A stretch of DNA of 27,415 nt, taken from contig CAZUCM010000002.1 of NCBI GenBank assembly GCA_964619235.1, forward strand, positions 1-27,415. The letters run 5' to 3'. The notes under the pieces are model-generated. The model was not told where the DNA came from. It was given only the letters and a program-made list of their open reading frames with translations, and searched no databases. Origin of the DNA: an uncultured Terriglobales bacterium. GTDB lineage: Bacteria > Acidobacteriota > Terriglobia > Terriglobales > Acidobacteriaceae. Shown piece after piece: positions 10,584 through 25,580 of the stretch; positions within the stretch are counted from its first letter, which is position 1; each line of letters opens with the position of its first letter. The translations under genes were made by a program, and so were the position numbers.

Positions 10584-11210
10584 GTGATCAGAATCATCAC
10601 GATTGAACGGGAATATGGCTGCGGTGGCGGCGAGATCGCGCATCAGATTGCCGATCGCCTGGGCTGGAAGCTATGGGATCAGCTGCTGACACAAGAGATC
10701 GCACGGCTGAGCAATTGCGAACATGCGGATGTCGCCTGCCGCGAGGAACGCGTGGATCCGCTCTATTACCGCCTTTTCAAATCAATCCTGCGCGGTAGCT
10801 TTGAAGGCAGCCTGAACCTCCATCGCCTGAAGCTGCTGGATGCCGACAGCGTCTTGCGGATTACCCGGCAAGTCGTCGAGCAAGCCGCCTCCGAAGGCGA
10901 GTGTGTGATCGTCGGCAGAGGATCGCAGCATTTCCTGCGCGAGCGGCCCGATACCTTGCGCGTCTTCCTTTACGCTCCGCGGCAGGCGAAGCTGGAGCGA
11001 CTGATTGCGGAAGGAATCGCAGATAAGGAAGCCGAAGAGTATGTGGACAGCGTCGACGACGAGCGCGCCGCTTTCATTGCGAAGTATTTCGGCATGCAAT
11101 GGCCGAACCGGGATATTTACCACACGATGCTGAATACCGATATGGGAGATGAGCTCGTCATTCAGGCGATTTTGCGCCTCAAGGAAAATCTGGACCGGCA
11201 AGCCGCATGA
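10584..11210 (+). CDS. Cytidylate kinase-like family protein (P-loop NMP-kinase fold)
   Basis: GGAG RBS before the GTG at 10584. IITIEREYGCGGGEIA P-loop variant, CVIVGRGSQHFL, VFLYAP and YHTMLNT. Confidence 0.88.
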   Translation: MIRIITIEREYGCGGGEIAHQIADRLGWKLWDQLLTQEIARLSNCEHADVACREERVDPLYYRLFKSILRGSFEGSLNLHRLKLLDADSVLRITRQVVEQAASEGECVIVGRGSQHFLRERPDTLRVFLYAPRQAKLERLIAEGIADKEAEEYVDSVDDERAAFIAKYFGMQWPNRDIYHTMLNTDMGDELVIQAILRLKENLDRQAA

Positions 11211-11259
11211 GCCCGGGTGAAGGACATGCATGGGCGCTCTGCGGCCTTTTTGCTCAGGT

Positions 11260-13185
11260 TCACCGCCAATCGACCAGTGGCCGGAGCACTGGCGGAGTCA
11301 GCCGCGGCCATTTCTCGCCAATGGGAGTCAGCAGTACCGCCAGCCGCGTCATGCCCGCGCCGGCGGCTGGAATTACGTCAATGGCAAGCATGACGGTGCC
11401 CTCGTTCTGATTCTCGGCGGCTGTCGGCGGCCGGGTTGATCCGATGCTTAGCCGCGCGTCAACGGGTTCCATAAGCTCCACCCGCAGCGTGCGGCCATGA
11501 CTAGTTAGCATGGCCGAGCGGCCGTATGCGGCAATTTCGATATGGGCCGCGGTCACCATCGTCCAGCGCAAGGGCGTGCCCGGTTTTGCCGGCTGGTATT
11601 CATCCTGCACCAGGACGCGTGAGCGGTCGAGCAAGGTTATCCCTCGGCGCAGGCTGGTAGCCTCGTCCGGATAGGCGGGTGTAAGGTCGGCTACGGCAAA
11701 GGCGCGTTCCGGCGTGCTGCCAAAGGCAACGATCGGAGCCACGATCAGACGGCGCTGCAAGGCATCACCGGGCGTCACCGTATTGTGGCTACGATTATTG
11801 GCCCGGAAATAGGACCATCGTCGCGACGCATTGTCGAAGTATTTGGGAAGGGTATAATCCTCCGGGCCGAGATCCATGGCCCAGCGTTGCCCATCAGCGT
11901 CGAGGACGAACGAGCCAAGATCGAGATGGTTATGGTGGTAGTCGTTTTTGCCGGCCTTGAAGCCCACAAATAGCGCGCGCGGATCGTTCCAGGCGCTGCG
12001 AAACAGTGCGATGTCGGCGATGCCCCGGAAATGCATGTCCAGGGGAGGAGCGGAGTCAAGGCCGCTCGCCGCGGGCTCTTGCGGAAACCAGACTGTATGC
12101 AGCGCAAAGAACCGGTTGACGACCTGGATTTGTATGGTGGGATCGAACTTCGTGACCGTCTCCTGGCCGAGGAAATTCGCCAGCAAGGCGCGCGCGCTAT
12201 GCAACGCAACCGGCAGATGATAGCGTTCCGCCAGCCAGGCAAACGCCGGAGAATTCTGCAGGTCCGCGGTGGAGTCGGCATAATTGAAGGCCAAGCCGAA
12301 GGGGCCATTCACCGCCAAATGATACATCGCCGTACGGTCGAAACCCGGCACCGCCGCCAGACCGAGATCCGTGCCGAGAGCGCTCTCCAGCTCCGCCAGC
12401 GCAATGACCGTATAGGTTGTCCCATACGTCCAGTAGCCCGGCCCTTCCGGATATGCGCCATCCGGCTGGTAGGAGGCCAGCCCGACAGGCATGGACGCGC
12501 GCGCGCCGTCAATGACCTTGCGTGCCAGAACCGGTTCTTCGTCGGCCAGCGCCAGGGCAGCGGTGAGCAGTCCGGTGTTGCATACCGGGTTCCAGTTGCC
12601 CGCCTTGGTGACCCATCCCAGGCGCCGGTCGCTCGATTCGCCGGGAACGTAGGCCGCTTCCGCAAAGGTTAGTGATTTTTCCATGAGCGCCCGCTTTAGC
12701 GTGGAGCGCTCGGCCGGCTGCAGCTGCGCATACAGCCAGTCATAGCCGATAGCAACGGCGAAACTCAGCTCGCCGACATCGAGAAAATGCTCCGGCCCCC
12801 AATCCGGAAAGGCGGCAACATTGAAGAGCTCGTTCTTAGCGCGTGCTGCGAAGCGAAGATCGCCGGTGAGACGGTACGCCATGGAGCAGGTGAGAATGTA
12901 ATAGACGGCATACCGCGCCTGATCGAGCGAAGCCTCTCCGGCCGGCAGATGCCGGCTCGGAGGCGCAGAGAGAATTGTTTCGGCCGTAGCGATGATGTGC
13001 TTGTGCAGGGCGGCACGCACGGGGTCGGACTTTGCCGAGGCCACTGCCGCAGCCAGTCCGTTGTCGGTTAGCAGAAGTCGTGGATGGCCGCTGCGGAGAT
13101 GGGCGAGCGGATCTTGCGCCGTGCCGGCCCAAAGGCGTGGCGCGGAGAAAATTAACGCCAACAGCAGCACGGCGAAACAGCGCAT
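11260..13185 (-). CDS. Secreted heparinase II/III-like polysaccharide lyase
   Basis: Signal peptide MRCFAVLLLALIFSAPRLWA. Contains HPRLLL, GAYPEGPGYW.YG, FNYAD, HNHLDLGSFVLDADGQRWAMDLG and SHNTVT, consistent with an alpha-toroid plus Hepar_II_III beta-sandwich. Confidence 0.88.
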   Translation of the reverse strand: MRCFAVLLLALIFSAPRLWAGTAQDPLAHLRSGHPRLLLTDNGLAAAVASAKSDPVRAALHKHIIATAETILSAPPSRHLPAGEASLDQARYAVYYILTCSMAYRLTGDLRFAARAKNELFNVAAFPDWGPEHFLDVGELSFAVAIGYDWLYAQLQPAERSTLKRALMEKSLTFAEAAYVPGESSDRRLGWVTKAGNWNPVCNTGLLTAALALADEEPVLARKVIDGARASMPVGLASYQPDGAYPEGPGYWTYGTTYTVIALAELESALGTDLGLAAVPGFDRTAMYHLAVNGPFGLAFNYADSTADLQNSPAFAWLAERYHLPVALHSARALLANFLGQETVTKFDPTIQIQVVNRFFALHTVWFPQEPAASGLDSAPPLDMHFRGIADIALFRSAWNDPRALFVGFKAGKNDYHHNHLDLGSFVLDADGQRWAMDLGPEDYTLPKYFDNASRRWSYFRANNRSHNTVTPGDALQRRLIVAPIVAFGSTPERAFAVADLTPAYPDEATSLRRGITLLDRSRVLVQDEYQPAKPGTPLRWTMVTAAHIEIAAYGRSAMLTSHGRTLRVELMEPVDARLSIGSTRPPTAAENQNEGTVMLAIDVIPAAGAGMTRLAVLLTPIGEKWPRLTPPVLRPLVDWR

Positions 13186-13484: not shown

Positions 13485-14576
13485 CTAGTCTCCCGGCATC
13501 GGGTGTTTGGCCTCATCGGCGTGAGGCACCAGTTCCATGTACAGCGCCCGCGGCACGGGAGTGTTCCAATGTGCCGCGGCCTTCGCATAGCCGACGATAC
13601 CCAGGAACAGTACCGCTATGGCCGCGGCGATGGCCCAGGCAGGAATCCTCACGGCACACATTCGCGGCACTCGCGGCAGCGACATTTGCAAGGCGTCCTT
13701 TGCCGGACAGACCGCGACACATTCCATGCAGCCGGTGCATTCGGCGGATTGCACGGTCACCAACTGTTGAACCGGCAGCAGCGAAGGGCAAGCCTTCGAG
13801 CAAATCCCGCAATCGATGCAAGCCGAGGCGTTGCGGCGGATGCTTGCCGGGCTGAACAACGCAGCCAGTCCCAGCAACGCGCCATATGGACAGGCATACC
13901 TGCACCAGAAATTCTGCAGGAACAGGGATGCGCCGGCCAGCAGGCTTAACACGATGAACCCGATTGTGCCCATGTGGCGGAAGAAATTGAGCATCTTTAC
14001 GTCCGCAATGGTCCCATACGGGCTACTCAGAAAGGCCGCAATGGAGGCCGGGGACATCGTTGCCACTGCCCAGATAAAGAAACCGAGCAACAAATACTTC
14101 AGTCCGCGCAGAGGCAGGTCAACTAAACGGGGCAGTTGAAACGTGCGGCGGAACAGCTTGCGGCCCGTGCGCCAAAAATATTCCGAAATTGTGCCGATCG
14201 GGCATAACCAGCTGCAAAACGTCTTGCGCAACAAAAACGCCATGGCCAGAAATGCCAGCAGCAGGAACATTCCGGCGGGGTGTACGGCCGGAACCTGACC
14301 GGTCATCAGCCAGTACTTAAGATTCATCATGGCCGCGATCGGCAGCCAGCCCTCAACGCCCGCCGGCCGCGCCACGGAACTGGGGCGGCCCGTCTCGAAT
14401 TGCCGCACCCACAGGTAGAAGACTTCGCCTAGGTAAAGGTTGAGCAGCAGGAACCCCAGTTGAAAGCCGTGGCGTAGTGCCTGGGAGTAGTCGTGCCGGG
14501 TTTGCCGCACGAACCTTCGTTTCCGCTCGCCCTCCGCGATTGAGCCGGGCACCCGGCTGGCAGGTATGCTCTTCAC
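13485..14576 (-). CDS. yccM: YccM-like membrane 4Fe-4S protein (NapH/polyferredoxin superfamily)
   Basis: GVEGWLPIAAMMNLKY, FCSWLCPIGT and WCRYACPYG (CxxxCP motifs), plus two CxxCxxCxxxCP clusters. Closely matches E. coli YccM as recalled. The GTG start is uncertain. Confidence 0.88.
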   Translation of the reverse strand: MKSIPASRVPGSIAEGERKRRFVRQTRHDYSQALRHGFQLGFLLLNLYLGEVFYLWVRQFETGRPSSVARPAGVEGWLPIAAMMNLKYWLMTGQVPAVHPAGMFLLLAFLAMAFLLRKTFCSWLCPIGTISEYFWRTGRKLFRRTFQLPRLVDLPLRGLKYLLLGFFIWAVATMSPASIAAFLSSPYGTIADVKMLNFFRHMGTIGFIVLSLLAGASLFLQNFWCRYACPYGALLGLAALFSPASIRRNASACIDCGICSKACPSLLPVQQLVTVQSAECTGCMECVAVCPAKDALQMSLPRVPRMCAVRIPAWAIAAAIAVLFLGIVGYAKAAAHWNTPVPRALYMELVPHADEAKHPMPGD

Positions 14577-17056: not shown

Positions 17057-17320
17057 ATGTACAAATGGATGCCCATCATTGACGAAAGCAGCTGCACAGG
17101 CTGTGGTTTATGTATCGCAGCCTGCGGTCCGAGGTCGCTGGCGCTGGCTGACGGGATTGCAGAACTCACTCTGCCCGATACCTGCGGAAGCGAGGAACAC
17201 TGCATATCGGTTTGTGCATCTGGCGCTATTCAAATGGCGTGGTTGCCTTTTACCGGAAACAGAAAAGTCGGGAAATGGAGGAACGGAACGCAAGGCGCGG
17301 CCGTCTGTTATCCGGGCTAA
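17057..17320 (+). CDS. Small dicluster ferredoxin with one atypical cluster motif
   Basis: CTGCGLCIAAC (canonical) and CGSEEHCISVC (second Cys replaced by Glu). Starts 8 nt after the GATase stop. Confidence 0.88.
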   Translation: MYKWMPIIDESSCTGCGLCIAACGPRSLALADGIAELTLPDTCGSEEHCISVCASGAIQMAWLPFTGNRKVGKWRNGTQGAAVCYPG

Positions 17321-17455: not shown

Positions 17456-19693
17456 ATGGCCATGGAAGCTATTGATAGAAGTTCTTCCAACCGGCACTTG
17501 GCTTTGGGCACGGTTTCCTTTACCGTCTGCTTTGCCGCCTGGGGTATGATTAGCGCTTTCGCCCCTCGTTTCAGGCAGCAATTACACCTCTCAGCCACGC
17601 AAACTGCCTTGCTGATTGCAGTTCCCGTATTGCTTGGCGCCTTGGCTCGCATTCCGATGGGTATGCTGACGGACCGGTTCGGCGGGCGGCTGGTTTTTTC
17701 CGCGCTAATGTTCTTTACCGCGCTGCCTTTGGTCTGTGTGCCCTTCGCGGTATCGTATCGGAGCTTATTGTTCGCCGCTTTCTTCCTGGGCCTGGCTGGC
17801 TCTTCCTTTGCCATCGGCATTGGATATGTTTCGCGCTGGTTTCCCATGGAGCGCCAAGGAAGCGCACTCGGCGTGTATGGACTGGGTAACATTGGGCAGT
17901 CCGCGGCGGTGTTCCTGGGCCCGGTGCTGGCGGCGGGCTTCGGCTTCCGGCGCGTTTATTGGGGATTAGCCGCGATCCTCGTCGCATGGGGAATCGCTTT
18001 TGCGATCTCTGCCCGCAACGTTTCCGGCGGTGTGCGCCCGAAAAGCGTCGGCGAAATGCTCTCTGTGCTGGCCCACGAGCGATTGTCCTGGGCATTGTCG
18101 GCCTTCTATTTCCTGACCTTCGGTGGATTTGTCGCTTTCTCCATCTACCTGCCGAGTCTGCTCAAGGACCAGTTCGGCTTGCGCCCCGCGGACGCCGGCT
18201 TCCGAACCGCCGGATTTGTGGTGCTGGCGACACTTTGCCGGCCGCTGGGCGGTTGGCTGTCCGATCACATTGGCGGGTCGCGGGTGCTGTCCTGGACCTT
18301 TCTGGGAATTGCGGGTTTTGCTTTGCTGCTGGCTTCGCCCACCATGCTCTCCTTTACCGTCGGAGCCCTGGGCTGCGCCGCTCTGCTGGGGATCGGCAAT
18401 GGAGCGGTATTTCAACTCGTTCCACGGTATTTCCCTGACCAGCGGGCGACGGTGACCGGCTTGGTCGGTGCCATGGGAGGTATGGGTGGATTCTTTCCAC
18501 CTCTATTGTTGGGCGCCTTTCGTGATCGTCTGGGCGTGGTATGGCCAGGGTTTCTTTTGCTCTCCGCCACTGCTGGCTTTCTGTGGTGGCTGAATCTGCG
18601 CGTCTTCCTGCCCCGGGAAGAAAAGCTGGAGAGATTGCTTCCTCCCAGCTTCCGGCGCACTGGCGACCGTCTCCGCGCCGGAGCGATTGCCACCTTGTGG
18701 ACCGGCGTTCTGATCGCGGCCATATTCGTGGGCTCGCGCAATCTGCAAAACTTTGATCCGGCGCTGGTGATCTATACCTTTGCGGTAGTCTTCGCCACCT
18801 GGGGCGTTATTTATCACTACGCTGTCTGGATTCAGAAGCCTCCCACGCGTATCTATTGGGAACGCGGATGGCAGCTCTTCCGGCAACAAGGAGTCTTCCA
18901 CAGCCTATGGCGCGTGATCGCGCTGGCGGGGACCCACTTGTTCGGGCAAACCTTTATTGCCAGGCGCTCGCTCACACGCTGGGCGATGCATCAATTGCTG
19001 TTCTGGGGCTGCCTGCTGGCGGCAGCCATCACTTTTCCTCTGGTTTTTGGATGGATTCACTTCACCAGCGCGCCTGACGATCAGATGATTTACATTGTGC
19101 ATCTGTTCGGATTTCCGGCCGGCCGCTTCCATCTCCACACGATTACCGCCGCCCTGCTCTTTCATGGACTCGATATTTCCGCCTTCCTCGTGCTAGGCGG
19201 AATTGCGCTCTCCCTGTGGCGCCGCATGCGGGACGAAGGCGCCATAGCGGTGCAGAGCCTGGCAATGGACTTCTTTCCGCTGATTTTGCTATTTGCGATC
19301 TCCGTGACCGGGTTGGCGCTAACCGTGTCACAGGAATGGCTGCGGGGAAGCTTCTATTCTTTCTTGGCGATTCTGCACGCCATCACGGTAATCACAGCTC
19401 TGCTGTATTTGCCGTTCGGCAAGTTCTTCCATATTTTTCAGCGCCCGGCACAACTTGGCGTAAAACTCTATCAGGAGACCGGCGAACGCGGCACAGGCGC
19501 GGTTTGCCGGCGCTGCGGGGAACGCTTTGCCTCGCGCATGCATATCGACGATTTGGAACAGGTCCTGCCCCAGGTTGGTTTTGATTACCGCATGCCCGGC
19601 CCGGCGGAACATTGGCAGGAATTATGCCCGGCCTGCAAGCGCAAGTCCCTCTCGCTGGCGCAACTCAAATTGAAAGAGGACGCGAATGGCTAA
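17456..19693 (+). CDS. Fusion of a NarK-type nitrate/nitrite MFS transporter (aa ~1-385) and a NarI-like cytochrome b membrane domain with a C-terminal CxxC/CxxC motif (aa ~400-745)
   Basis: NarK features: R65 (LARIPMG), R262 (CRPLGGWLSD), nitrate-signature-like GLAGSSF and GIGNGAVF, and FGGFVAF. Second domain: RWAMH512 and LH641...LPFGKFFH659 (18-residue His spacing as in NarI H187/H205), C684xxC687 and C724xxC727. Confidence 0.9.
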   Translation: MAMEAIDRSSSNRHLALGTVSFTVCFAAWGMISAFAPRFRQQLHLSATQTALLIAVPVLLGALARIPMGMLTDRFGGRLVFSALMFFTALPLVCVPFAVSYRSLLFAAFFLGLAGSSFAIGIGYVSRWFPMERQGSALGVYGLGNIGQSAAVFLGPVLAAGFGFRRVYWGLAAILVAWGIAFAISARNVSGGVRPKSVGEMLSVLAHERLSWALSAFYFLTFGGFVAFSIYLPSLLKDQFGLRPADAGFRTAGFVVLATLCRPLGGWLSDHIGGSRVLSWTFLGIAGFALLLASPTMLSFTVGALGCAALLGIGNGAVFQLVPRYFPDQRATVTGLVGAMGGMGGFFPPLLLGAFRDRLGVVWPGFLLLSATAGFLWWLNLRVFLPREEKLERLLPPSFRRTGDRLRAGAIATLWTGVLIAAIFVGSRNLQNFDPALVIYTFAVVFATWGVIYHYAVWIQKPPTRIYWERGWQLFRQQGVFHSLWRVIALAGTHLFGQTFIARRSLTRWAMHQLLFWGCLLAAAITFPLVFGWIHFTSAPDDQMIYIVHLFGFPAGRFHLHTITAALLFHGLDISAFLVLGGIALSLWRRMRDEGAIAVQSLAMDFFPLILLFAISVTGLALTVSQEWLRGSFYSFLAILHAITVITALLYLPFGKFFHIFQRPAQLGVKLYQETGERGTGAVCRRCGERFASRMHIDDLEQVLPQVGFDYRMPGPAEHWQELCPACKRKSLSLAQLKLKEDANG

Positions 19694-21923
19694 GCCTCCA
19701 GCTTCCTTAGAAGCCCTGAAGACGCAGTTCGGGCCTACGTTGAATTACCTTCCGCCCGGCGGCTGGAAAGACGAAGCGGTTCACGCGCCCGACAAACTCG
19801 TAAAAACTCACTGCTGCTTTTGTGGCCAGCAATGCGGCATTCAGCTGAAGGTGCGGGGAAACAAAATCATTGGCTTTGAACCCTGGGAAGATTTTCCGTT
19901 CAATCACGGCATGCTTTGTCCCAAGGGGGTTAAGCGCTACTTGCAGAGCGATCACCCGGACCGGCTGCTTCATCCGCTCATGCGCACGGATCATGGATTT
20001 CGGCAGGCCAACTGGGAAGAAGCATTGGAATTCACCGCACGCCGCATGCGTGAGATCCAGGCAAAGCATGGCAAAGACGCGGTTGCCGTTTTCGGAGGCG
20101 CATCGCTATCTACCGAAAAGTCCTACCTGATGGGAAAGTTCGCGCGTCTGGCAGTGGGCACCCGGCATATCGATTACAACGGACGCTTGTGCATGGTCTC
20201 GGCCGGTACCGCGTACAAATTGGCGTTCGGGATCGATCGCAGCACCATACCGTGGAGTGACATTCTCAAGGCGGAAGTCTTGTTCGTCATCGGCGCCAAC
20301 ATCGGCGATTGCGCTCCCATCACTACCGACTACGTCTGGCGCGCCCGCGATCAGGGCGCGCGCCTTGTGGTGGCCGATCCCCGCATGACCCCCATTACAC
20401 GCAATGCGGACCTGTATTTGCCTCTGCGGCCCGGCACCGATCTGGTGCTCCTGATGAGCATCCTGCACGTAATTCTGCTCGAAGGCCTGGAGGATCGCGA
20501 CTTCATCGATCGCTACACCACCGGCTTTGCCGCGGTGGCGGAGTCGGTCAATGCCTACGATCCGGTCACTGCCGCCCAGCAGACCGGCGTTCCCCCGGAG
20601 TCCATCGAGAAGGCGGCGCGCTGGATCGGCAAGTCCCGGCGGGTGGTATTCCTGCATGCGCGCGGCCTGGAACACCAGTCGAAGGGCGTGGAAAATTGCC
20701 TTGCGGTCATAAACATTGCACTGGCAACGGGAAATCTCGGGCACGAGGGCTCCGGGCCGACGATGATTACCGGCCAGGGAAATGGACAGGGCGGCCGCGA
20801 GCATGGACAAAAGTGCGATCAGCTTCCGGGGCAGCGATCGCTTACCGACCCGGCGGCGCGCGAGCACGTTGCGCGCGTCTGGGGAATCAATCCGGACGAC
20901 CTTCCGCAACCCGGCTACACTGCGCCCGAGATCATGGAGGCGATTCATCGCGGCGAGATCAAGGCGCTGCTTTCCACTTGCTTCAATCCGTTGGTTTCGC
21001 TTCCTGACGCGAACTTCACCCGCGAGGCGTTGTCGCGGCTGGAGTTCCTGGGTGTGATCGATTTCTTTATGTCGGAAACCGCGCACCATGCCGACGTCGT
21101 GCTCGCGGGCAGTTTGCACGAAGAGGAAGATGGCTTAGGCTGTAGCACCGAAGGACGGGTGATCCATTGGAAAAAATCCGTCGATCCACCCGGCGAGGCC
21201 CGCCGCGATTCGGACATCCTGGTGGATTTGGCCCGCCGTTTGGGGAAAGGTCAGTATTTTCCCTTCGAGAAGCCGGCGGAAATTCTGGAAGAACTGCGCG
21301 AAGCTTCGCGCGGCGGGGTGGCTGACTATTACGGCATCACCTACGAGAAGGTGGACAAAATGAAGGGCGTCTTCTGGCCATGTCCGGCGCTGGAGCATCC
21401 GGGGACGCCACGCCTGTTCGAAGGGATGAAATTTCCTACCAGTGACGGGAAGGCGCACTTCCAACTTACAGAATGGCGGCCATCGGGCGATCCCGTGGAT
21501 GCACACTATCCCATCTACCTGACCACCGGACGCGTGGTGAGCCAGTATTTGTCGGGTACCCAAACTCGACGGATTGGTGCTCTCGTAGAGCAATATCCCG
21601 AGCCGCGGGCGGAGGTGCATCCCCGTTTGGCGGAGCAGTTTGGCATCAAGGATGGGGACTGGGTGACGGTTGAGAGCCGTCGCGACAAGCTCACGCTGCA
21701 AGCGATGGTGGTGAAAACCATTCGCCCGGACACCGTCTTCATTCCATATCACTGGCCGGGCATTCGCAGCGCCAATCGTTTGACGCATCGCACGCTCGAT
21801 CCACGCAGTAAGATCCCGGAATTCAAGGTCTCAGCATGCCGCATCGCCAAGGCAACCGGATTGGAGGCCGCCGCTGACGATCGTGCCCCGGAACACAGCG
21901 GCGCCGGGCAAGGAGCGAAGTAG
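19686..21923 (+). CDS. Cytoplasmic bis-MGD molybdoenzyme of the NasA/NapA nitrate reductase clade
   Basis: N-terminal [4Fe-4S] ligands C43/C46/C50/C78 with LCPKG. Mo ligand in NGRLC169M170 (Cys-Met as in Nap/Nas, not Cys-His as in FDH). [11 protein letters not shown] and [17 protein letters not shown]. No Tat leader. Confidence 0.9.
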
Positions 21924-22519
21924 TGTTCGGATACGAATTCTACGTTGATCCCTCCCGCTGTATCGGTTGCCGCTCATGCCTGCAGGCCTGCGAGGAGTGC
22001 GAAACGCATCGCGGCAAGTCGATGATCAACTTTGACTTTATCGAGCGCAGCGACAACATCTACTCCTCAGCTTACGTCTGCTGGCACTGCGACGAACCCA
22101 CCTGCGCGCAGGTCTGCCCGGCGGATGCCATCAAGAAAGGCGAGGATGGGATCGTTCATTCCTCACTGAAGCCCCGCTGCATCGCCTGTAACAACTGCGT
22201 GCTGGCCTGTCCCTTCGGGATTCCCAAAATGATGATTCCCGAGCAGCAGATGATGAAATGCGATATGTGCTACGATCGCACCTCCGTGGGCAAGCGTCCC
22301 ATGTGCGCTACTGTCTGCCCCAGCCAGGCTCTGGCCTATGTGAGGCCCGAGGAGATCAGGCCCCGCCGTGAAAAGCCGGTCAATATCTTTTATTTCGGAA
22401 GTCAGAAGATTACCACCAAGGTGTACATGATGGCCCCCGCCGAGCGCGATGCGATCGCGCTCGACGTGGTCGATTATATGTGGGAGGACAACCGTGAACT
22501 GGCTACGGCGCGCGAGTAG
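21923..22519 (+). CDS. Four-cluster 4Fe-4S electron transfer subunit (DmsB/NrfC/HycB-like)
   Basis: [37 protein letters not shown] and CDMC...CATVCP give 16 ligand Cys. The GTG start overlaps the upstream TAG. Confidence 0.93.
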
Positions 22520-23003
22520 CGAACCCTTATGGAAAGACGAATTCTCCGTCCACACCGCCGATGAGCGCTATGTGTCTCGCCGGCAGATGACGAAATTCCT
22601 CGTGCTCACCAGCTTCGGCATGTTCGTGGGGAATGTCTTGATTCTGGTTCGCTCCTTCTTTCACCACCCACGGCAATATCCTGAGTTGGACCTGGGGCAC
22701 ATTGGGGAGATTCCGGTGGGTGGGGTGAAATTGTTCGGATATCCCAGCGAGAGGGATCGCTGTATCCTGGTGCGCACCGCCGAGGCTTCCTATGCGGCCT
22801 ATAGCCAGAAATGCACACATCTGTCGTGCGCAGTGTACTACTCCAAATCCAGCAATCGGCTGGAATGCCCTTGCCATAATGGCGCCTTCTCGATCACCGA
22901 CGGATCGCCGCTGCAAGGCCCACCCCGGCGTCCCTTGCCCAGGGTGGTGCTGGACGAACGAGGTGGGGAACTGGTTGCTGTCGGCTTGAGAGGAGAACCA
23001 TGA
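22494..23003 (+). CDS. Membrane-anchored Rieske [2Fe-2S] protein with a twin-arginine motif
   Basis: GGAGG RBS before the GTG at 22494. SRRQMTKF followed by a TM helix. Box I CTHLSC and box [10 protein letters not shown], then GPPRRPL. Confidence 0.92.
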
Positions 23004-23248
23004 GTGAACTTTCCAAGCTGCCGCCACAAACCCGTGGGCTGATTGCTATCACAGGCGCCATGTCACTGATCGCTGTGCTTCTCATACTGCAAATTTATCT
23101 GTTGAGTGCCGCATTGGAGGCCTTTCTTGCTGGCGACATGCGCGCCGCTCTGCCGGCAGCAGTCTTTTCCGGCATTATATTTCTGGCTTCTCTCGGCTTA
23201 TCGTTGTTCGTGGACAGGGTCGACGCTGAAGCGCATCGCGACATCTAA
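23000..23248 (+). CDS. Small two-TM membrane protein, last gene of the operon (possibly DUF6755-like; from memory, unverified)
   Basis: ATGA overlap with the Rieske gene and a GGAG RBS. Two hydrophobic helices flank LEAFLAGD. Confidence 0.8.
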   Translation: MSELSKLPPQTRGLIAITGAMSLIAVLLILQIYLLSAALEAFLAGDMRAALPAAVFSGIIFLASLGLSLFVDRVDAEAHRDI

Positions 23249-23321
23249 CCGGCCACGGCTTTCCCTGCGCTTCATCCGAAACACACGGCCTTCCGCCCCT
23301 GGCCAGGAATCTCGCCACCGC

Positions 23322-23525
23322 TTAGGTTGTGCGCTTACGCCGCTCCGTGACCGACTCGCCAGCGATACCCCAGTTGTCGGTATCCACCTCGTCGATCACC
23401 ACAAAAGTGGTCTGCGGATCTTTTCCGAGCTCGTCTTGCAACAGCTTTGTCACCCCGGCAATCAGCCGCTTCTTTTGCTCTTTGGTAACGCCCTCGCGGG
23501 TGATCCTAATATTCACGTATGGCAT
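23322..23525 (-). CDS. 4-oxalocrotonate tautomerase family protein
   Basis: AGGAG RBS. M-P-YVNIRI gives a catalytic Pro-1 after Met removal. EQKKRLI, VVIDEV..DNWGIAG. 67 aa. Confidence 0.93.
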   Translation of the reverse strand: MPYVNIRITREGVTKEQKKRLIAGVTKLLQDELGKDPQTTFVVIDEVDTDNWGIAGESVTERRKRTT

Positions 23526-23573
23526 GGGCACTCCTCACTCGCAGGGCCGTGGAACCTTATACCGCAAGCGACT

Positions 23574-25580
23574 CTACGAGTTGGACACGGGAAACTGCGC
23601 CCGCAGTATGTTGGTCATTGCCGGGCTCAGCTGCTTAAACAGTTCCGCGTTATACGATGCGCAATACGGAACTCCGGAAACCGCCCCGTACTCGATACTT
23701 GGATCCGCGGTGCCGTCCTGCGGCCGCGTGGGATCCATCGTATCGACCGGGAAGACGCCATATGCCTTCGGAACATTGAGATTATTCTGCGTTAAATTGT
23801 TTTGTACGATCTGTTGCGTCGCGATTGAATAAGAACGGGAGGTCGCCGCCGGCGTACCTTCCGCAACCGCCGGATCCACGTTGGTGGCTACGATGGAAAT
23901 CGTGTAATCGCTGTTCAGGTAGATCTCGAAGGTGCGGAATTGCTGCGGAAAATCCCTGAGTGACGAGGTTTCGACCTGCCAGAAGCCGCTTTGCGGCCCC
24001 CCACTTGCCGTTGGCGGAAACGCTTTCACCGTGTTGAGATGACGGTGTCCGGCAATCCACATCAGCAGATTGGGAGTGTTTTGCAGCGTGGCAACCAGAT
24101 TCGTCAGGGAGACGGCATTCTGTTCGGTTGCGTTGGGGTCCTTGGCGGACTCCCACCATTCCATTTCGCATCCGATATTGCCGACGGCGATCGGCACATG
24201 GGCGGCGATGATCATGAGCTGATTGGCGGCCTGGCCGGCAGCCAGTTCCGCCTGCAGCCATCCCCACCGCGTCGCATCGAGGAATCCATGCCCGTGAATA
24301 TCGTGGGAGCCGTCGGTTTCCGACTGCGTGTCGTCAAGCACGATGACCTTGAGCGGAATATCCGACTTGGGAACGAAACTATAACAGGCAAAGCCGCTTC
24401 CCATCGATGGGTCGACCAGGTTCAGACCATGACCAACCGGAGAGGTGGTGGTGGTGAAGAATTCCTGGATCCAATCGGTTCTCAGGAGGGGACGGCGATT
24501 CGGATCGGCGGCCACCGTTGGAGGCGTGCTGAAGTTCGCCACCGGCCCAGCGTCTTTGATACTGCCGTCAGGAGTCGAACCGTCGATTACGCCCATGTAA
24601 TAAGACTGTTCTTGCAGGCTGGCGGAGGTATCAAACAGGCAGGGAAACGTCTTCATGGAATTTGGGTTTACCAGATCCCCTGCCGCCCAAACCGTGTCGG
24701 CGGTGAATGCCGGTTGAAGATTGAGCGCCGGTCCGGCATTGACGGGAACGCTGCCCAGCCAGAAATGATCGTGGTTGCCCATCACCTGATACCAGGGGAT
24801 CAACCGGTTGAGGCCGGCGGCCTGAAAGGGCTTTTGATAGTCGATCGAGGTCGCTCCCAGATGGGCGCCCGAGCTGGGAGTGATCATTTTGCCGTCGATG
24901 ACGTCAATATACCAGCGTAGCTCGTTATATTGAGTGTTGTTGCAGGTATCGCCCAGAGAGATCCCGAAATCGAACGGCGTTTGCTTGTGCAGGGCATTGA
25001 CCGTCTGAATGGCGGCGTCAAGAACATGGGTCGTATACGGCATAATCGGCGAGTATAAGGACGTCATGGGCGCCCCATATACCGGATCCAGCTGTTGCGC
25101 ATAGATCAGCTGATTCGGAGCTTCCTTGTCGGTGATGTGGGTGTCGGTGAACGCGAAGAAGTTCACCAGCCGTTGCAGCCGGACGGGCGCCGGGTTGCTA
25201 TAACCGGAGGGCATGAGGTCGAAGCGCTGAACCAGTGCCAGGGGTCCACCGTAGGAGTAGTTGCCGTAACCATATTTTCCGTATTGGGAAACCAGCGGAA
25301 GCTCGGTCGGGAATAGCCCCGTGCCCGAGTTGGGAGCGGAAGGTTTCACCGGCATGGGAAACGACAGCACCCGCTGCGCGGTGGTCGCGACCGTGGAATC
25401 AATCGGGTAGGCGGCGGCCGAAGCGTTTCCGCCGCATCCGGTAGTCAAAGCGTTTAGGTAAAGACAGGCAGCCGTCCCCGCCGAATACTTGAAGAACTCG
25501 CGGCGCGTCACGCCGTGTACCATTTTCAAATCGTCGCTGCTCAAGATGGACGTGCGCTGTTTTGAATCGCTATCACCCAT
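23574..25580 (-). CDS. Tat-exported calcineurin-like metallophosphoesterase lipoprotein (resembles the TIGR03768 family)
   Basis: Tat motif TRREFFK and lipobox-like TTGC. Metallophosphoesterase motifs DTH, GDTCNN, GNHDH, AAHVP and GHRH. Confidence 0.88.
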   Translation of the reverse strand: MGDSDSKQRTSILSSDDLKMVHGVTRREFFKYSAGTAACLYLNALTTGCGGNASAAAYPIDSTVATTAQRVLSFPMPVKPSAPNSGTGLFPTELPLVSQYGKYGYGNYSYGGPLALVQRFDLMPSGYSNPAPVRLQRLVNFFAFTDTHITDKEAPNQLIYAQQLDPVYGAPMTSLYSPIMPYTTHVLDAAIQTVNALHKQTPFDFGISLGDTCNNTQYNELRWYIDVIDGKMITPSSGAHLGATSIDYQKPFQAAGLNRLIPWYQVMGNHDHFWLGSVPVNAGPALNLQPAFTADTVWAAGDLVNPNSMKTFPCLFDTSASLQEQSYYMGVIDGSTPDGSIKDAGPVANFSTPPTVAADPNRRPLLRTDWIQEFFTTTTSPVGHGLNLVDPSMGSGFACYSFVPKSDIPLKVIVLDDTQSETDGSHDIHGHGFLDATRWGWLQAELAAGQAANQLMIIAAHVPIAVGNIGCEMEWWESAKDPNATEQNAVSLTNLVATLQNTPNLLMWIAGHRHLNTVKAFPPTASGGPQSGFWQVETSSLRDFPQQFRTFEIYLNSDYTISIVATNVDPAVAEGTPAATSRSYSIATQQIVQNNLTQNNLNVPKAYGVFPVDTMDPTRPQDGTADPSIEYGAVSGVPYCASYNAELFKQLSPAMTNILRAQFPVSNS

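Follow-up and report, generated by a model that had tools for sequence, protein, structure and literature searches.

We analyzed a window of 27,415 nucleotides from an uncultured Terriglobales bacterium (Acidobacteriota, Acidobacteriaceae; GenBank assembly GCA_964619235.1, contig CAZUCM010000002.1, positions 1 to 27,415 of the forward strand), which carries at 17456-19693 on the forward strand an open reading frame (ORF) for a fusion protein of 745 aa. Translation and family scans showed that this protein joins a NarK-type transporter of the major facilitator superfamily (MFS), a cytochrome b domain and a tail with four cysteines (Cys4). The span studied here, 18986-19636, corresponds to codons 511-727 and lies in the C-terminal third of the ORF. 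The MFS domain, of the NarK nitrate/nitrite family, occupies about residues 1-381 (17456-18600, +); over residues 13-345 it matched PF07690 (E 2.6e-45) and, under the curated cut-off, TIGR00886 (E 1.7e-70, 238 bits). Residues 400-745 matched families only weakly, namely PF02665 (E 9.5e-4), QmoC in its C-terminal membrane part, and TcuB.

The AlphaFold2 model of residues 400-745 was confident (pLDDT 94.5, pTM 0.87). It has six membrane helices, the second and third of which (II and III) are separated by a three-stranded sheet, and the tail forms a small domain of its own. The cytochrome b domain, as delimited by this model, VIA and hhalign, covers residues 401-663 (18656-19444, +) and consists of an extra helix, TM0, and NarI-like helices I-V. 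The periplasmic beta-sheet between helices II and III comprises residues 534-560 (19055-19135, +), assigned from the modelled strands and from the Rieske contacts in the complex model described below. The tail, C684xxC687...C724xxC727, comprises residues 664-745 (19445-19690, +). Topology and modelling place this tail on the cytoplasmic side, because the C-terminus of the MFS domain is cytoplasmic and six membrane helices follow it, and because the ferredoxin subunit of the operon was modelled opposite the Rieske subunit.

Three genes for predicted redox partners follow on the same strand. The first (19686-21923, +) encodes a Nas/NarB-type molybdenum (Mo)-bisPGD catalytic subunit without a signal peptide, which matched NF047855, the NasC model, with E 4e-230 (below the cut-off) and TIGR01591 with E 1e-176; its active-site motif, GRLCM, is nitrate-reductase-like. 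The second (21923-22519, +) encodes a four-cluster ferredoxin subunit of the DmsB/HycB type, the iron-sulfur (FeS) subunit, also without a signal peptide (PF13247, E 1.8e-18; BLASTP against E. coli HycB, E 2e-15). The third (22494-23003, +) encodes a membrane-anchored Rieske subunit with a twin-arginine motif and a disulfide Cys pair, recognized by PF00355, by alignment and by the complex model. The gene order cytochrome b, Mo subunit, FeS subunit, Rieske was found in all 20 of the same-phylum genomes examined.

A sequence-only reading of this DNA had picked out three histidines and four cysteines of the C-terminal domain, H512, H641, H659, C684, C687, C724 and C727, together with A522 at the position where NarI has its ligand H66, and the translation put every one of these residues where that reading had them. 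Residues 400-745 were then searched against 1.84 billion representative proteins, which gave 1176 relatives at E up to 0.001; many of them were stand-alone proteins of 340-390 aa that span the whole domain including the tail. The conservation check that the reading had proposed was run on 41 full-length, diverse homologues (25-73% identity), and all seven residues were kept in 37-41 of them (H512 in 39, H641 in 41, H659 in 39, C684 in 40, C687 in 38, C724 in 37 and C727 in 39). Conservation at this level indicates that the His/Cys pattern is not due to chance.

H512 (18989-18991, +) lies on the cytoplasmic side of helix II and H659 (19430-19432, +) on the cytoplasmic side of helix V, and these two are the proposed ligands of the proximal heme bP. 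The pair is near-invariant and aligns with H89 and H239 of an acidobacterial EMO-type protein. The claim that the cytoplasm-proximal site is canonical was supported. H641 (19376-19378, +), on the periplasmic side of helix V, belongs to the outer (distal) site and aligns with NarI H187 and EMO-type H221, and H659 aligns with NarI H205. T526 (19031-19033, +), 14 residues after H512, adjoins the outer heme site; it was Thr in 35 homologues and aligns with EMO-type T103. Going by published residue numbers, it would correspond to Ala101 of SaEMO and to a Ser in HdrE. The codons of the four cysteines start at 19505 (C684), 19514 (C687), 19625 (C724) and 19634 (C727).

The lack of an H66-equivalent ligand, first noticed in the window's protein, turned out to hold throughout the family: position 522 was Ala, Ser or Gly in 39 of the 41 homologues and His in none. 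H641 was the only histidine of the outer site conserved across the family. A universal fourth His was sought among the homologues and was not found, and the alignment showed no conserved Met or Lys within the membrane on the outer side that could act as fourth ligand. The near-invariant residues of the outer side were D434, Y440, T526, F536, Y546 and H641, with F536 and Y546, both within the sheet, each kept in 40 homologues. The near-invariant basic residues R504, R508, R590, K656 and R663 were all on the cytoplasmic side.

The family assignment of the domain was examined by profile and structure comparison. A direct sequence search of the domain against the PDB gave nothing useful, but the family profile matched NarI (E 2.7e-4) with H641 and H659 on H187 and H205, and hhalign against E. 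coli NarI gave a probability of 94.7 and E 6e-8 over helices III-V. For H641 and H659, the correspondence with NarI that the sequence-only reading drew from motifs was thus seen at residue level, but the equivalence of H512 with H56 follows from topology, fold and the EMO-type alignment and not from a direct NarI sequence alignment. Alignment with the membrane domain of the acidobacterial EMO-type protein reached further and scored better (probability 95.9, E 5.9e-9, 152 columns, helices II-V); it paired H512, T526, H641 and H659 with H89, T103, H221 and H239, with the +14 spacing present in both, and it showed that the sheet at 534-560 is an insertion relative to the EMO-type domain. This comparator (L084:2207-3106:+) was identified by its likeness to a relative (L081:265-2370:-) that carries NarI, Fer4 and two CCG domains, the EMO/EtfD architecture, and it served as a bridge to the EMO of S. 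aciditrophicus (SaEMO), the EtfD of M. smegmatis (MsEtfD) and HdrE.

The fold comparison agreed with these alignments. Foldseek on the whole domain was flooded by helical bundles like those of G-protein-coupled receptors, and a high probability was obtained only for EtfD (1.00) and NarI (1y5i_C, 0.99). VIA gave Z 11.7 for EtfD (9ojn_A; root-mean-square deviation (rmsd) 5.2 Å over 235 residues) and Z 10.5 for NarI (1q16_C; rmsd 4.8 Å over 179 residues), values that are modest for helical bundles. With NarI, the gamma subunit of NarGHI (PDB 1Q16), the domain shares the five-helix core and the HX17H pattern of helix V, and the two systems would also share their logic, in which quinol is oxidised outside and nitrate is reduced inside via an FeS subunit. 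Unlike NarI, however, the window's family lacks the H66 ligand, its helices I-II are not alignable with NarI by sequence, and its catalytic partner is Nas/NarB-type and not NarG, whereas NarI has no Cys4 tail, Rieske partner or TM0.

EMO/HdrE-type domains are reported to conserve exactly three His; in SaEMO, bP is held by H87 and H251, the distal site has two stacked hemes (a twin heme), one of which is held by H233 alone, and Ala101 (Ser in HdrE) lies opposite the second distal heme (bioRxiv 10.64898/2026.08.18.745454). The window's domain resembles SaEMO, MsEtfD (PDB 9OJN) and Methanosarcina HdrE in having a single His on helix II and a pair of His spaced by 18 residues on helix V, in having a small or hydroxyl residue at +14 in place of the fourth His, and in having cytoplasmic electron-transfer partners, and this group also gave the best fold match and the longest profile alignment. 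It differs from them in lacking a fused ferredoxin/CCG (HdrD-like) part, and no Fer4 or CCG domain was matched in the fusion protein in Pfam; it has instead a HycF-like Cys4 tail and the separate four-cluster ferredoxin of DmsB/HycB type. TM0, the inserted II/III sheet, the Rieske and Mo nitrate reductase partners and, in some lineages, the NarK fusion set the window's family apart as well. Judged by these sequence and profile comparisons, the cytochrome is a NarI-family protein of the HdrE/EMO(EtfD) branch with three heme His and not four, rather than a defective NarI. The description of its ligands as an incomplete NarI set therefore used the wrong frame: three His and a small or hydroxyl residue at +14 are normal in this branch, so the missing fourth His is the rule of the branch and not a defect. 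The three-His set is compatible with zero, one or two outer hemes.

Next to the histidines, the cysteine tail was compared with known structures. As the sequence-only reading had stated, the Cys4 site is absent from NarI, and it was conserved in the homologues (37-40 of 41). Its assignment there to a Zn-ribbon or rubredoxin-like site did not hold, because the unique best match was the C-terminal metal-binding extension of HycF, and no rubredoxin or Zn-ribbon family was matched in the fusion protein in Pfam or NCBIfam. The family profile matched residues 115-164 of HycF (7z0s_F) with E 5.7e-3, the only PDB match besides NarI below E 0.01. Pairwise, hhalign against E. coli HycF gave E 4.2e-6 (1.7e-5 with a tail-only alignment), and BLASTP gave 38% identity over 47 aa (E 3e-5). 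The tail-only model (pLDDT 83.7) was also used, and the top Foldseek matches were 7z0s_F (probability 1.00) and 7z0t_F (probability 0.99), with TM 0.53, while the next match was at most 0.25. In VIA, HycF (Z 6.2, rmsd 1.8 Å over 52 residues) was the only chain with Z of at least 5 among 48,161. The second CxxC stands at a helix start in the models. By sequence and modelled fold, the tail is a HycF-type module, which would bind a single metal.

In the structure of E. coli formate hydrogenlyase (FHL), Cys117/120/155/158 of HycF hold one metal, tentatively iron, and the extension is in contact with HycB and lies opposite an acidic patch on FdhF (PMC9474812). The tail of the window's protein shares with the HycF/HyfH extension (PDB 7Z0S/7Z0T) the spacing CxxC-(34-36)-CxxC, the motifs FA, D and CPxC(K/R)R, and the same small fold, and the window's operon partners are homologous to HycB and FdhF. 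It differs in being placed on a membrane cytochrome b and not on a NuoI-like ferredoxin, and in that some homologues have lost cysteines. One homologue (L043:8431-9441, -) kept the tail, but its two CxxC pairs are replaced by CPHT and SPQG, so that three of the four Cys were lost; its Mo, FeS and Rieske genes were intact. Besides this homologue, about 3 of the 41 lacked one or more Cys. Because the cysteines were lost with the operon intact, a role in docking or structure is more likely for the Cys4 site than one as an obligatory electron relay. The identity of its metal and its docking role are proposed by analogy with FHL and by the homology of the operon partners.

Alternatively, the Cys4 site could be a rubredoxin-like redox iron, forming an obligatory relay from bP to the first cluster of the FeS subunit and replacing the ferredoxin domain that follows helix V in EMO and EtfD. 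The tail starts 25 residues past H659, where EtfD enters its cluster D4 domain about 7 Å from the heme (PMC13083937), the structural alignment with EtfD continues into the tail (model residues 35-314), and the tentative iron in HycF would suit such a role. However, the metal in FHL has its closest cluster at 17 Å and was considered not to lie on the electron path (PMC9474812), the homologues without the cysteines kept their His ligands, and Pfam gave no rubredoxin family match. We regard an obligatory relay as unlikely. In addition, five of the stand-alone cytochromes (L032, L033, L036, L038 and L039) were seen to have an extra C-terminal extension of 30-40 residues with the conserved end motif ...GEGPLGxEDxxNFHP.

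The Rieske subunit was investigated by alignment and complex prediction. In 20 aligned Rieske sequences the RR pair was invariant within the motif SRR(D/E)F-x-KF, and the boxes CTHLxC...CPCH, including the disulfide pair, were also invariant, as expected of an exported bc1/b6f-type Rieske protein. The complex was predicted from the cytochrome domain, the ferredoxin and three hemes, with Rieske as the scored partner. Rieske reached an ipSAE of 0.65, compared with 0.00 for the best of 3 controls; this mark was reached by 58/80 solved complexes and 2/110 mismatched pairs, a calibration of the docking score that is only rough, as the prediction used alignments of our own and had hemes riding along. 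The runs agreed in at least 94% of contacts, and the partner pLDDT was at least 76. No solved complex of a Rieske protein with a NarI-type cytochrome is known to us, and it therefore seems unlikely that the docking result reproduced a known structure. The complex model supports Rieske binding but does not show it.

In the model, the N-terminus of Rieske (residues 10-25) contacted the cytoplasmic loop 454-462 and the ferredoxin, its helix packed against TM0, TM I and TM V, and its cluster loops 109-113 and 126-130 lay on residues 535-546 of the cytochrome. The Rieske domain and the ferredoxin were on opposite sides of the membrane, and the cluster tip was above the single-His site. The sequence-only reading had offered, as one of several options, that the distal site interfaces with the Rieske cluster, and it was this option that the contacts of the complex model favored. 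The family-specific sheet at 534-560 over the outer site is thus the predicted docking surface for the Rieske [2Fe-2S] tip.

The residue conservation, family assignment, fold, tail homology and gene linkage were observed or computed directly, and with the model support for Rieske docking they lead us to a reading that we hold to be probable: residues 401-745 would be the redox anchor of a membrane-bound, cytoplasm-facing nitrate reductase assembled from known modules, namely a three-His EMO-type cytochrome, Rieske docking and a HycF-type tail. Heme occupancy and the electron path are what we infer from it. H512 and H659 would bis-ligate the cytoplasm-proximal heme bP, and H641 would be the single conserved His of the outer, periplasmic site, faced on helix II by the conserved T526 and not by a His. 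The sheet would cap the outer site and dock the [2Fe-2S] tip of the Rieske protein, exported by the twin-arginine translocation (Tat) route. Menaquinol would be oxidised at the outer site, in the vicinity of H641, of the sheet and of the tip of Rieske, and its electrons would cross the membrane via the outer heme or hemes and then bP, and would pass through the HycB-like four-cluster ferredoxin to the Nas-type Mo site, to which the fused NarK would deliver nitrate. The Cys4 of the tail would bind one metal ion (Fe or Zn) at the cytoplasmic face, and by analogy with FHL the tail most likely helps to dock the HycB-like and FdhF/Nas-like subunits without being an obligatory relay. There is a good likelihood that the outer site holds heme, since an always-present, redox-competent Rieske over that site would otherwise have no electron route. 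If it does, a stacked twin heme as in SaEMO is possible but on balance unlikely.

Several results weigh against this proposal. No conserved periplasmic basic residue that could hold heme propionates was found in the 41 homologues. The protein alone scored 19.3 bits against PF02665, for which the Pfam cut-off is 22.9; in the genome-frame search the score was 22.5 bits, and it rose to 29 when neighbouring stretches were included. The match to HycF extends over only about 50 residues and, PDB-wide, reached no better than the E 5.7e-3 given above. The residue correspondence with SaEMO was taken from the numbering of the paper and not from an alignment with SaEMO; the parallels seen in this way, the residue at +14, the helix I acid (E22 against D434) and a His at +22/+23 (H109 against H535), are suggestive. 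In addition, MsEtfD keeps the three His, including the distal one, yet shows bP only (PMC13083937).

This last point leads to the alternative that the domain is an EtfD-like one-heme cytochrome, with bP only, an empty outer site, H641 as a structural or vestigial residue, menaquinol reacting beside bP on the cytoplasmic side, and the Rieske protein not wired to the nitrate reductase chain. MsEtfD was the top structural match, its menaquinone lies 4-5 Å from its single heme (PMC13083937; bioRxiv 10.64898/2026.08.18.745454), and the missing propionate-holding residues would be explained. However, H641 was invariant, and T526, D434, Y440 and Y546 were near-invariant on the outer side, and a Rieske protein with intact cluster ligands was always co-encoded, with its modelled tip over the outer site and no electron route without an outer heme. 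The EtfD authors also reported particles with lost heme density (PMC13083937). A one-heme cytochrome is considered improbable.

It could also be proposed that the outer site carries out Qo-like quinol oxidation rebuilt on a NarI-type scaffold, in which a single-His (possibly twin) low-potential heme and Rieske split the electrons of menaquinol, the low-potential electron crossing to the Nas-type reductase and the Rieske electron going to a periplasmic acceptor or back through the hemes. If true, Rieske/cytochrome b chemistry would have been invented a second time, independently. The system resembles the bc1/b6f complexes in having a Tat-anchored Rieske protein with disulfide-stabilised loops, whose cluster tip is predicted to sit close to a putative quinol site, on the periplasmic side of a heme b protein. 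It is unlike them in that only the Rieske subunit is of bc1/b6f type: the cytochrome is NarI-type and not bc-type, with no match to PF00033 or PF00032 in the fusion protein in Pfam, no cytochrome c1/f gene is consistently linked, and electrons are expected to end on cytoplasmic nitrate. A linked c-type cytochrome that might act as the Rieske acceptor was absent from most of the related loci. A Qo-like site of this kind is doubtful.

An ordinary two-heme NarI arrangement, with H570 (LFHG) or H535 (WIHF) as the fourth axial ligand, was weighed against the same alignment. Both histidines occur in the window's protein, and H570, in helix III, is separated from the periplasmic end by about seven residues, so that its depth is similar to that of H641. 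However, H535 was His in 23 of the 41 homologues, and position 570 held His in 18 of them and Asn in 19; neither His was present in at least 9 homologues, which still kept H641. H535 belongs to the first strand of the beta-sheet, outside the membrane and where Rieske makes contact in the model, and the alternation of His and Asn at position 570 fits a hydrogen-bonding residue better than an axial ligand. The suggestion of the sequence-only reading that WIHF or LFHG supplies a fourth ligand was not upheld as a general one, and the two-heme NarI arrangement is very unlikely. That the domain binds no heme and is a mere membrane scaffold for reductase and transporter is scarcely credible: the Pfam score is under the gathering cut-off and heme binding is a prediction, but the bP ligand pair and the basic residues R504, R508, R590, K656 and R663 are near-invariant, and the ligands align with the proven heme ligands of NarI and with the EMO-type histidines.

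For the proposed three-His anchor of a nitrate reductase, each part has a precedent, in the EMO/HdrE heme set, the HycF tail and the bc1-type Rieske, but the combination is unusual and new. In the literature searched, no description of the fusion, the complex or the operon was found. What is new is that the heme set is reassigned, that the tail is identified, and that the sheet is predicted, from a model, to be the Rieske docking site. A three-His NarI-type site has only recently been shown to hold nothing, in EtfD, or a stacked twin heme, in EMO; the same site, placed under a Rieske cluster and before a nitrate reductase, offers a second, physiologically different system for asking what a single-His distal site binds and does. 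To our knowledge, no Rieske protein pairs with a NarI-type cytochrome b, and the definition of Rieske/cytochrome b chemistry would widen if the docking were confirmed. The likeness of the tail to HycF suggests that docking modules of this kind can be reused for FdhF/Nas-type molybdoenzymes.

The distribution of the module was also examined. The family is abundant in soil Acidobacteriota, with the cytochrome present in about 55/401 genomes sampled from the phylum, and its fold-level relatives fall in ESM Atlas clusters whose commonest phyla are Acidobacteriota, Actinomycetota and Verrucomicrobiota. NarK was fused to the cytochrome in 3 of the 20 genomes with the conserved gene order and was nearby in 5; the fused form recurs at loci L034, L042 and L048. 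One further protein (P0148, 830 aa) reads as MFS, cytochrome domain and Mo-subunit Fe4S4 domain in one, and represents either one more fusion or the product of read-through or of a frameshift where stop and start overlap. In the ESM Atlas, stand-alone cytochromes of about 324-363 aa without an MFS domain were named 'MFS transporter', a label apparently carried over from the fused forms. With stand-alone cytochromes named in this way in databases, this predicted nitrate-reducing capacity goes unseen in soil metagenome surveys.

The genes around the module in related genomes suggest that, at least in some lineages, it has a part in dissimilatory nitrate reduction. NrfA, the pentaheme nitrite reductase (PF02335, E 1e-126 and 3e-135), was directly beside the module in 2 of the 20 loci (L041:13146-14606, +; L049:9555-11063, -), and L049 also has a NapC/NrfH-type tetraheme protein (11154-11636, -), which suggests that the module feeds nitrate-to-ammonium respiration in these two. 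Three genomes, all of the same family, have a canonical narI (PF02665, about E 1e-58) at a distance of about 10-12 kb from the module (G115:C2:1276267-1276914; G091:C2:242494-243138; G150:C2:475378-476022), and therefore the two nitrate reductase types coexist in a single neighbourhood and do not replace each other. A weak NarG-like match was also seen between narI and the module in G115. The window's own genome gave no match to NIR_SIR and only weak NrfA-like matches, which says little in a genome that is 68.55% complete.

Finally, the remaining ORFs near the operon in the window were inspected. An 82-aa two-helix membrane protein (23000-23248, +), whose ORF overlaps the Rieske stop codon, was found 3' of the Rieske gene in 9/20 related loci by tblastn and is a likely candidate for a fifth subunit. 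The upstream ferredoxin-like ORF at 17057-17320 (+) was found next to the module in none of the 20 related loci and probably does not belong to the conserved module. A 229-aa ORF at 23106-23795 was rejected as a gene, since it had no family match, is Arg-rich and overlaps a gene on the opposite strand. Further upstream, a NapH/NosR-like membrane ferredoxin (13485-14576, -) lies 3 kb from the operon, and a cupredoxin-like protein (754-1347, +) lies 16 kb from it.

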